A stretch of 64,000 nt of DNA, taken from the NCBI RefSeq assembly GCF_024502345.1, contig NZ_JALDNN010000001.1. One strand, given 5' to 3'. The DNA is from Escherichia coli (GTDB lineage Bacteria; Pseudomonadota; Gammaproteobacteria; Enterobacterales; Enterobacteriaceae). Shown here one piece after another: positions 14,582 through 15,316 of this stretch (position 1 is its first letter; the number at the start of each line of letters is the position of its first letter). Position numbers and translations under genes: made by a program. A model generated the notes under the pieces. That model did not search any database. It was not told the DNA's origin and worked only from the letters and a program-made list of their open reading frames with translations.

Positions 14582-15316
14582 CAGGATGAGGTGCACACTC
14601 TGGTATGGGTGTCACCTGCCAGAAAAAGCATTGACCTTCGAGCGTATTTCGCCGATAAACAGGGATCCGCCTCATGAGCGGGTCTGAATGCTAACGTTTC
14701 TCTACATCCTTCCCGGTGCCTTTGCCGGGTTTTTTACATCTGTAGTCTCGTTTTCTGGAAAATATTCGTTTCCCTGCCATAATCATAGCAGGCAGCCATT
14801 TGCCGGGCGGCATCGGGTATGCCGTCAGATACCTGAAATTCCTGATAGTGTAGTTTTACGGGCGGCTCCGCCCGTTTTTTTTGTCTTCCCGGAAGGGGGC
14901 ATTTAAAGTGGTGCTATGCATAATACGCAGGTTCGCTAACACCTGTGCAGGTGTTGTTATTAACCATAAGGCCTCTACGCGCACCGCTCAGAAGGCCTGA
15001 GAGCGTTTCAGCGGTACGCGTAGAGGCCTTATGGTAAATAGCCTATGCTAATGTCCGCTAAGAGCTGTGAGTTCAACTGATGGACGCAACACACTTATTG
15101 AACCGTTCTGCGGGTGATTCATAGTCTAGGCTTTTTCTCGGCCTTTCGTTGAGCTGTCTGGCAACACTGTTAAGTCTTTGCTGGCTGTGAACCGATAAGT
15201 CAGTTCCTTTTGAAAATACTGCCTGAGCAATCTGTTTGTATTTTCATTGGAGCCGCGTTGCCAGGGGGATTGAGGATGGCAGAAGTAAACCTGAATATCT
15301 GTGGCTACAGTAAACT

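Follow-up and report, generated by a model that had tools for sequence, protein, structure and literature searches.

A palindrome downstream of an Escherichia coli autotransporter gene as a probable relic of a cer-type XerC/XerD site

We analysed a 64-kb stretch of the Escherichia coli chromosome (hereafter the window), in which a large palindrome lies in the gap that follows an autotransporter gene. Each arm of this palindrome is very likely a cer-type (ColE1-family) XerC/XerD core site, i.e. a homologue of the plasmid multimer-resolution site. The two putative cores are arranged head to head, with their XerC arms inward, 27 bp apart, and their XerD arms outward (Table 1). We estimate at about 70% the probability that the palindrome is an inactive relic, left by a dimer-resolution site that was borne on a plasmid or an IS and became palindromic through inverted duplication. 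The kind of site is well known; the arrangement, a degenerate head-to-head pair of cer-type cores, is new. An anonymous palindrome would thereby become an identifiable object, namely a pair of recombinase sites from a plasmid dimer-resolution locus.

Table 1. Window positions of the palindrome, its putative Xer half-sites and the adjacent features
Feature	Position	Strand	Sequence	Basis or remark
Left arm, putative XerC/XerD core	14959-14985	-	GGTGCGCGTAG-AGGCC-TTATGGTTAAT	regex; MAFFT with ColE1 cer and five family sites; nhmmer; BLAST
Left arm, XerD half-site	14959-14969			
Left arm, central region (5 bp)	14970-14974			
Left arm, XerC half-site	14975-14985			
Accessory remnant (24 nt)	14986-15009	-	GAAACGCTCTCAGGCCTTCTGAGC	most of the palindrome spacer; alignment and nhmmer
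Right arm, putative XerC/XerD core	15013-15039	+	GGTACGCGTAG-AGGCC-TTATGGTAAAT	MAFFT; nhmmer; comparison with ColE1 cer
Right arm, XerC half-site	15013-15023			
Right arm, central region (5 bp)	15024-15028			
Right arm, XerD half-site	15029-15039			
XerD-side flank, family-native	15040-15065	+	AGCCTATGCTAATGTCCGCTAAGAGC	identical 26-mer beside the cores of Qin (L006), L005 and L038
ISCfr4-like IS30-family remnant (right inverted repeat and transposase C-terminus)	15066-15316	-		BLAST, 92-96% to ISCfr4-family copies
Second palindrome	14938-14955	.	AACACCTG-TG-CAGGTGTT	3 nt outside the left XerD arm

Results

Geometry and predicted folding of the palindrome

The sequence-only reading of this region had described a large near-perfect palindrome with 19-nt arms, in which ACCATAAGGCCTCTACGCG at 14963-14981 is the exact reverse complement of 15017-15035. 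The palindrome is confirmed, and its arms turned out to be longer: the full inverted repeat has arms of 31 nt (14958-14988 and 15010-15040), complementary at 29 of 31 positions (94%) and separated by 21 nt, with both mismatches in their outer parts. Its size is far beyond chance. With up to 3 mismatches allowed, the 19-nt arm has only 2 matches in the 64-kb window, for 0.01 expected by chance. The inverted repeat stops at most 1 nt from the outer edge of the XerD arms. RNA hairpins are predicted on both strands, at -65.5 and -66.3 kcal/mol (z -8.4 and -8.6), and a DNA hairpin is predicted at -33.4 kcal/mol (z -8.2). The spacer had been considered internally self-complementary, a feature that mostly comes down to 6 additional pairs between the arms; otherwise, it forms few, weak pairs.

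The second, 18-bp palindrome that had been noticed just upstream does exist, but on its own it is statistically ordinary, as palindromes of its kind occur 19 times in the window (perfect 8-nt arms and a spacer of at most 4, against 5.2 +/- 2.9 in shuffles). By analogy, it may sit about where related cer-like sites have a hairpin beyond the XerD arm. Only one other long inverted repeat within 120 nt occurs in the window, at 43235-43266. It is perfect, with 14-nt arms and a 4-nt loop, and is probably a terminator.

Homology of the arms with cer-type core sites

We built an nhmmer profile from seven members of the cer family (ColE1 cer together with sites of plasmids and of the K-12 Qin prophage), leaving out the window sequences. 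In the 64-kb window, this profile gave two significant matches, which are the two arms: 14996-15065 on the plus strand for the right arm (E 3.8e-17) and 15011-14958 on the minus strand for the left arm (E 1e-11). All other matches had E > 1. By BLAST, the left arm matched plasmid cer-like sites at 88.7% over 51-53 nt (E 4e-8).

In a published table of Xer sites, ColE1 cer reads GGTGCGTACAA-TTAAGGGA-TTATGGTAAAT and dif reads GGTGCGCATAA-TGTATA-TTATGTTAAAT, the inner AA of the XerC arm being common to dif, cer and psi (PMC2410131). The published 30-mer cer core was located in ColE1 itself (L008 3909-3938). Relative to the XerD arm of cer, the right XerD arm of the palindrome is identical at 11 of 11 positions and the left one at 10 of 11. 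The XerC arms agree with the lineage consensus GGTGCGCGTAA at 9-10 of 11 positions; their outer 10 nt match well, and the inner AA is broken by a 2-bp deletion. The GGTACG variant of the right XerC arm is shared with the E. coli plasmid p720632_72 (L038).

The same 2-bp gap relative to the family is found in both arms (GTAATGAGG becoming GTA--GAGG). It leaves a core of 27 bp, versus 28-30 bp in dif, the lineage and cer, with AGGCC as a 5-bp central region. The TAAT lost through this deletion would match the -10 of the cer promoter. Since the arms share derived features absent from all other sites compared, they are each other's closest relatives.

According to published descriptions, a Xer site has two arms of 11 bp that flank a central region of 6-8 bp, together with ~180 bp of accessory sequence to which ArgR and PepA bind (PMC2699498, PMC5357621). 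In the palindrome, the profile alignment ends after 24 nt of the accessory region, and no other accessory-like segment was found in the window. The orientation of this putative remnant is native to the left core: it matches L004 at 23 of 24 positions and both L003 and L038 at 22 of 24, versus 14 of 24 when placed relative to the right core. No further dif- or cer-like site that could be a partner was detected in the 64-kb window.

Related sites on plasmids and in the Qin prophage

BLAST searches with the left arm and spacer matched >1200 plasmid records, mostly from Klebsiella, Enterobacter and Escherichia, each match spanning ~50 nt. The plasmids include small Rop-encoding ColE1-type replicons (L003) as well as large conjugative ones (L004, L038 and L005, the last from Citrobacter freundii). 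In ~1250 E. coli genomes, the same query hit one site, which in K-12 and relatives is located in the Qin prophage, in the interval from flxA to ydfW. These plasmid and Qin sites carry GGTGCGCGTAA-TGnGGCG-TTATGGTAAAT, which is built like a XerC/XerD core, and in the MAFFT alignment they are homologous to ColE1 cer across the core and ~130 nt of accessory sequence. The ARG-box column of this alignment was recognised by the ARG-box consensus. Based on sequence resemblance, the plasmid matches had also been considered as RNAI/RNAII replication regions or as oriT, which we dropped given the alignment of the cer core and accessory sequence. A search for an Rcd family, as a possible explanation of the flank, in ColE1 and three related plasmid loci was negative, there being no such family in Rfam; it returned only RNAI and sraL.

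The Qin prophage of K-12 harbours a full-length, apparently unannotated cer-like site in the flxA-ydfW interval (L006 2960-3160), with a 29-bp core, GGTGCGCGTAATGAGGCGTTATGGTAAAT, and ~130 nt of accessory sequence. Cer-like sites are also present in L005 (3893-4083) and in L037. The Qin site is directly downstream of ydfW/ydfX, which are remnants of an ISNCY/IS1202-family transposase. A Citrobacter freundii plasmid displays the same order, transposase-accessory-core-flank, with an intact transposase (NF033594, E 1e-138). Elements of the IS1202 family have been reported to target Xer sites 5-6 bp from the XerC arm, with the left end of the IS proximal. This published geometry differs from that of the related sites, and targeting by the IS1202 family was therefore rejected as the explanation for the neighbouring ISNCY transposase. 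Two observations, the Qin cer-like site linked to this transposase and the hairpin resembling an inverted repeat, beside the cer-like sites, where insertion sequences repeatedly land, may merit more attention than the palindrome itself.

Genetic environment and distribution

Among 5426 complete E. coli genomes, only 15 have the gap that follows the autotransporter gene (11486-14536) at 100% identity. According to the RefSeq annotation of one carrier genome, the gene order is hemB, ISKpn26, the autotransporter gene, the gap and an IS30-family transposase remnant. Beyond this remnant are partial genes of IS911-like, IS30, IS66 and IS3 elements, a gene for an HNH endonuclease and a group II intron. 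The surroundings are littered with insertion sequences and their debris. RefSeq places the partial IS30-family transposase at 15073-15317, and the remnant ends around 15316, where it is cut by the IS911-like element. The sequence-only reading had found no convincing ORF in 14583-15316. This holds for 14583-15051, but from ~15073 the minus strand carries the annotated transposase remnant.

The full palindrome is present in a single copy per genome, all other matches being single cer-like sites. A search for the origin of the 14583-14957 segment retrieved these 15 E. coli genomes only, and no plasmid. In metagenomes, the arm 18-mer was detected in 17 human-gut contigs, always as part of the complete, identical palindrome downstream of the same autotransporter gene. 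Both the sequence and the orientation of the spacer are the same in the 15 genomes and the 17 contigs, with no spacer inversion in these 32 assemblies. A search of IMG/VR for the exact 18-mer gave no match, and in 100k species-representative genomes it gave one chance match, in an Eggerthellaceae MAG, without Xer context.

Nine of the 17 contigs form a second allele lineage, with ~0.85% SNPs and no IS30-family remnant. The 26-mer of the XerD-side flank is present in this lineage, in which the sequence continues as ...TGTCCGCTAAGAGC-GAAAAAC..., followed by ISSen4 or IS1. As these contigs carry the palindrome without the IS30-family element, the palindrome predates the insertion of the latter. 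Between 14778 and 15065, the two lineages differ by 0 SNPs for ~2.4 expected, a difference that is not significant and is uninformative on selection. The copies, all identical, give no sign of selection, do not demonstrate neutrality either and contain no variation in which base pairs could covary.

Other features of the locus were noted. Three strong terminator-like hairpins with T-runs are present in the ORF-free stretch, at ~14559-14582, 14712-14735 and 14858-14883. Outside the 15 carrier genomes of E. coli and the gut-metagenome contigs, the stretch that bears them was not found, and it has no homologue on plasmids. Inside the autotransporter gene, the metagenome alleles differ by indels of ~15-42 nt at 13483-13524, which suggests that the passenger domain contains repeats of variable length, or that slippage occurred during assembly. 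Finally, the last ~37 nt of one metagenome contig (L032), right after window position 15053, are a Nextera adapter (CTGTCTCTTATACACATCT...); this is an assembly artefact and not a recombination junction.

The flanking hairpin and insertion sequences

By comparison with an intact ISCfr4 copy (L002), which is not itself beside a cer-like site or the hairpin described below, the inverted-repeat end of the IS30-family element aligns from position 15052, just right of the palindrome. The 14-mer TGTCCGCTAAGAGC (15052-15065) matches the tip of the ISCfr4 inverted repeat at 12 of 14 positions, and the IS30 remnant joins it in register.

Just outside the XerD arm, members of the cer-like lineage have a conserved hairpin, TGTCCGCT..AGCGGACA, of which the 14-mer is the left half (window 15052-15065; L004 3965-3999; L005 4070-4083 and ~5580-5595; L038 3050-3080). 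In L005, an IS110-family element interrupts the hairpin at or near the same nucleotide as the IS30 fusion of the window, and in the second-lineage contigs IS1 is inserted 7 nt further on than this fusion point. The hairpin beside the cer-like sites looks like an insertion hot spot or a mimic of an inverted repeat.

These observations raise the question of whether the palindrome and the flanking hairpin are kept as a target for IS30-family or other insertion sequences, the palindrome being a by-product of transposition. IS30 prefers palindromic hot spots and targets that resemble its inverted repeats, and such a role would fit both the resemblance of the 14-mer to the ISCfr4 tip and the insertion of IS30, IS110-family and IS1 elements at or near one nucleotide. 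Nevertheless, we consider it unlikely. The evidence concerns the flank at 15052-15065 and not the arms, for which homology to Xer cores is a full explanation; the palindrome also occurs in sequences that lack the IS30 element; and inverted duplication of target DNA is not known from IS30-family transposition.

Other explanations of the palindrome

The sequence-only reading had proposed four candidates, among which a recombination site at an element boundary comes closest, because the arms are homologous to the XerC/XerD core of cer and are located where the flank of the autotransporter gene meets IS debris. The idea of a protein-binding site survives in part, as by homology the arms comprise half-sites for recombinases, but not that of an operator. 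The structured small RNA and the terminator or processing site found no support.

Could the palindrome be a functional Xer-dependent structure, such as a single-stranded DNA hairpin similar to the attP of CTX phage, a minimal cassette akin to dif modules or a regulatory XerCD-binding site? The inverted sites with their short spacer, the very stable predicted DNA hairpin in which the central region is perfectly paired, the arrest of the repeat almost exactly at the boundaries of the XerD arms and the identity of the right XerD arm with that of cer are all consistent with such a function, which we nonetheless regard as unlikely. CTX-type integration needs homology to dif on the XerC side, but the AGGCC central region has no similarity to the TGTATA of dif. 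Within +/-6 kb of the palindrome, the RefSeq annotation contains neither phage nor plasmid genes, and the locus adjoins hemB, which lies far from dif in K-12. Moreover, the structure has one context only and never occurs as a module elsewhere, and the spacer is not inverted in any of the 32 assemblies. We also searched IMG/VR for inverted cer-type XerD arms 45-75 nt apart, which yielded nine AT-rich chance matches, none of them with XerC-like arms. Lastly, inverted cer sites have been stated not to form the productive synapse (PMC2699498, PMC5357621). It is very unlikely that the inverted Xer pair is a working unit, be it a hairpin or cruciform recognised by XerC/XerD, as an enterobacterial counterpart of the CTX-type attP, or a minimal dif-module boundary in E. 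coli. If it were, cer-type cores would be capable of moving or rearranging the DNA of a chromosome, in a setting other than plasmids or Acinetobacter.

It is very unlikely that the palindrome acts as a structured small RNA, or as a terminator or processing hairpin of the transcript of the autotransporter or a neighbouring gene, even though very stable hairpins are predicted on both strands in an ORF-free gap. An Rfam scan of 14300-15600 with a permissive E-value gave sub-threshold matches only, and no family came near its gathering score; the best overlapping one was mir-249, with 19.8 bits versus a gathering score of 70. Nor was the palindrome flagged in the terminator scan: no T-run follows the stem, be it beyond 15040 or, for the minus strand, below 14958, and neither strand would give a U-tract there. 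Upstream, at 14559-14883, there are already three canonical hairpins of terminator type. In addition, a palindrome in DNA is expected to fold with equal stability from either strand, and homology to a DNA recombination site explains the sequence.

An ordinary genome-wide repeat of the REP/BIME/ERIC type or a MITE would likewise be palindromic and intergenic, but this is virtually excluded by copy number: the arm occurs only twice in the window, as the two arms, and the whole structure once per genome, in only 15 of the 5426 E. coli genomes, and not in the many copies of a REP-type element.

Discussion

We thus favour the hypothesis of an inactive relic of a dimer-resolution site. Its ancestor would be a cer-like site of the lineage found in enterobacterial plasmids and Qin, brought downstream of the autotransporter gene with mobile DNA. 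The core would then have turned into an inverted repeat; the most plausible route is a switch of template during replication, at a natural quasi-palindrome in the XerC-proximal accessory DNA (CAGAAACGC...GCCGTCTG). A later flip of the spacer, conversion between the arms or a second event may also have been involved. Thereafter, the hairpin and the 14-mer resembling an inverted repeat beside the palindrome would have drawn several insertion sequences.

We infer the inverted-duplication origin of the core from sequence comparisons, which conflict as to the ancestral arm. The spacer is native to the left core, whereas the outer flank and the GGTACG variant go with the right core. As the spacer and the flank point to different original arms, one simple inverted duplication does not explain everything. 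That the repeat ends at the edge of the XerD arms would be expected from selection for the binding site, or from conversion limited to it, and would be a coincidence if duplication was random. The search for an unduplicated, single-arm ancestor via a second-lineage contig led only to a Qin prophage with ISSen4.

The palindrome is probably not recombining, given its 5-bp central region, the loss of the TAAT (-10), the mere 24 nt of accessory sequence and the lack of a direct-repeat partner. The inactivity of the central region is deduced from the published range of 6-8 bp. Binding of the arms by XerC and XerD may persist. On balance, the palindrome is most likely a scar that marks a junction of horizontally acquired DNA. 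As a relic, it would be a marker of how plasmid- or IS-borne DNA joined the flank of the autotransporter gene, and it would illustrate how quasi-palindromes in cer accessory DNA may become long, perfect palindromes. Should XerC and XerD still act on it, then its 5-bp central region and head-to-head cores would make it an unusual substrate, informative on the minimal geometry that Xer recombination tolerates.

Comparison with known Xer systems

The palindrome can be compared with the forked hairpin of attP(+) of CTX phage, an IMEX, in that two close inverted Xer-type sites could fold to one duplex Xer site. Unlike the CTX system, it is not associated with phage genes, is not at dif and has no homology to the central region of dif. 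Furthermore, its stem is fully paired, whereas the folded CTX site has a bubble in the central region. The pdif/dif modules of Acinetobacter also feature pairs of XerC/XerD sites in inverted orientation. In contrast with these modules, the E. coli palindrome has a 27-bp interval without ORF, a single genomic context and cer-type cores with a short central region.

With the chromosomal dif site, the arms share the half-site architecture and the recombinases, and their XerD arm is one position from that of dif, TTATGTTAAAT. Nevertheless, the central regions differ (TGTATA versus AGGCC), and the palindrome consists of two inverted copies located outside the terminus region.

ColE1 cer and the cer-like plasmid sites are single cores, with a central region of 8 bp in cer and 7 bp in the lineage, as opposed to the inverted pair with 5-bp central regions described here. 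The ARG box and the PepA-binding accessory region of cer are absent from the palindrome, which is chromosomal and surrounded by insertion sequences. It shares with these sites 11-bp XerD arms, the right one identical to that of cer, XerC arms that match in their outer 10 nt but have the inner AA disrupted, 23 of 24 accessory nucleotides of a plasmid site and a XerD-side flank also present in three other members. On these grounds, the palindrome appears to derive from cer-type sites but not to be a functional cer site itself, as judged from the length of its central region and its accessory sequences.
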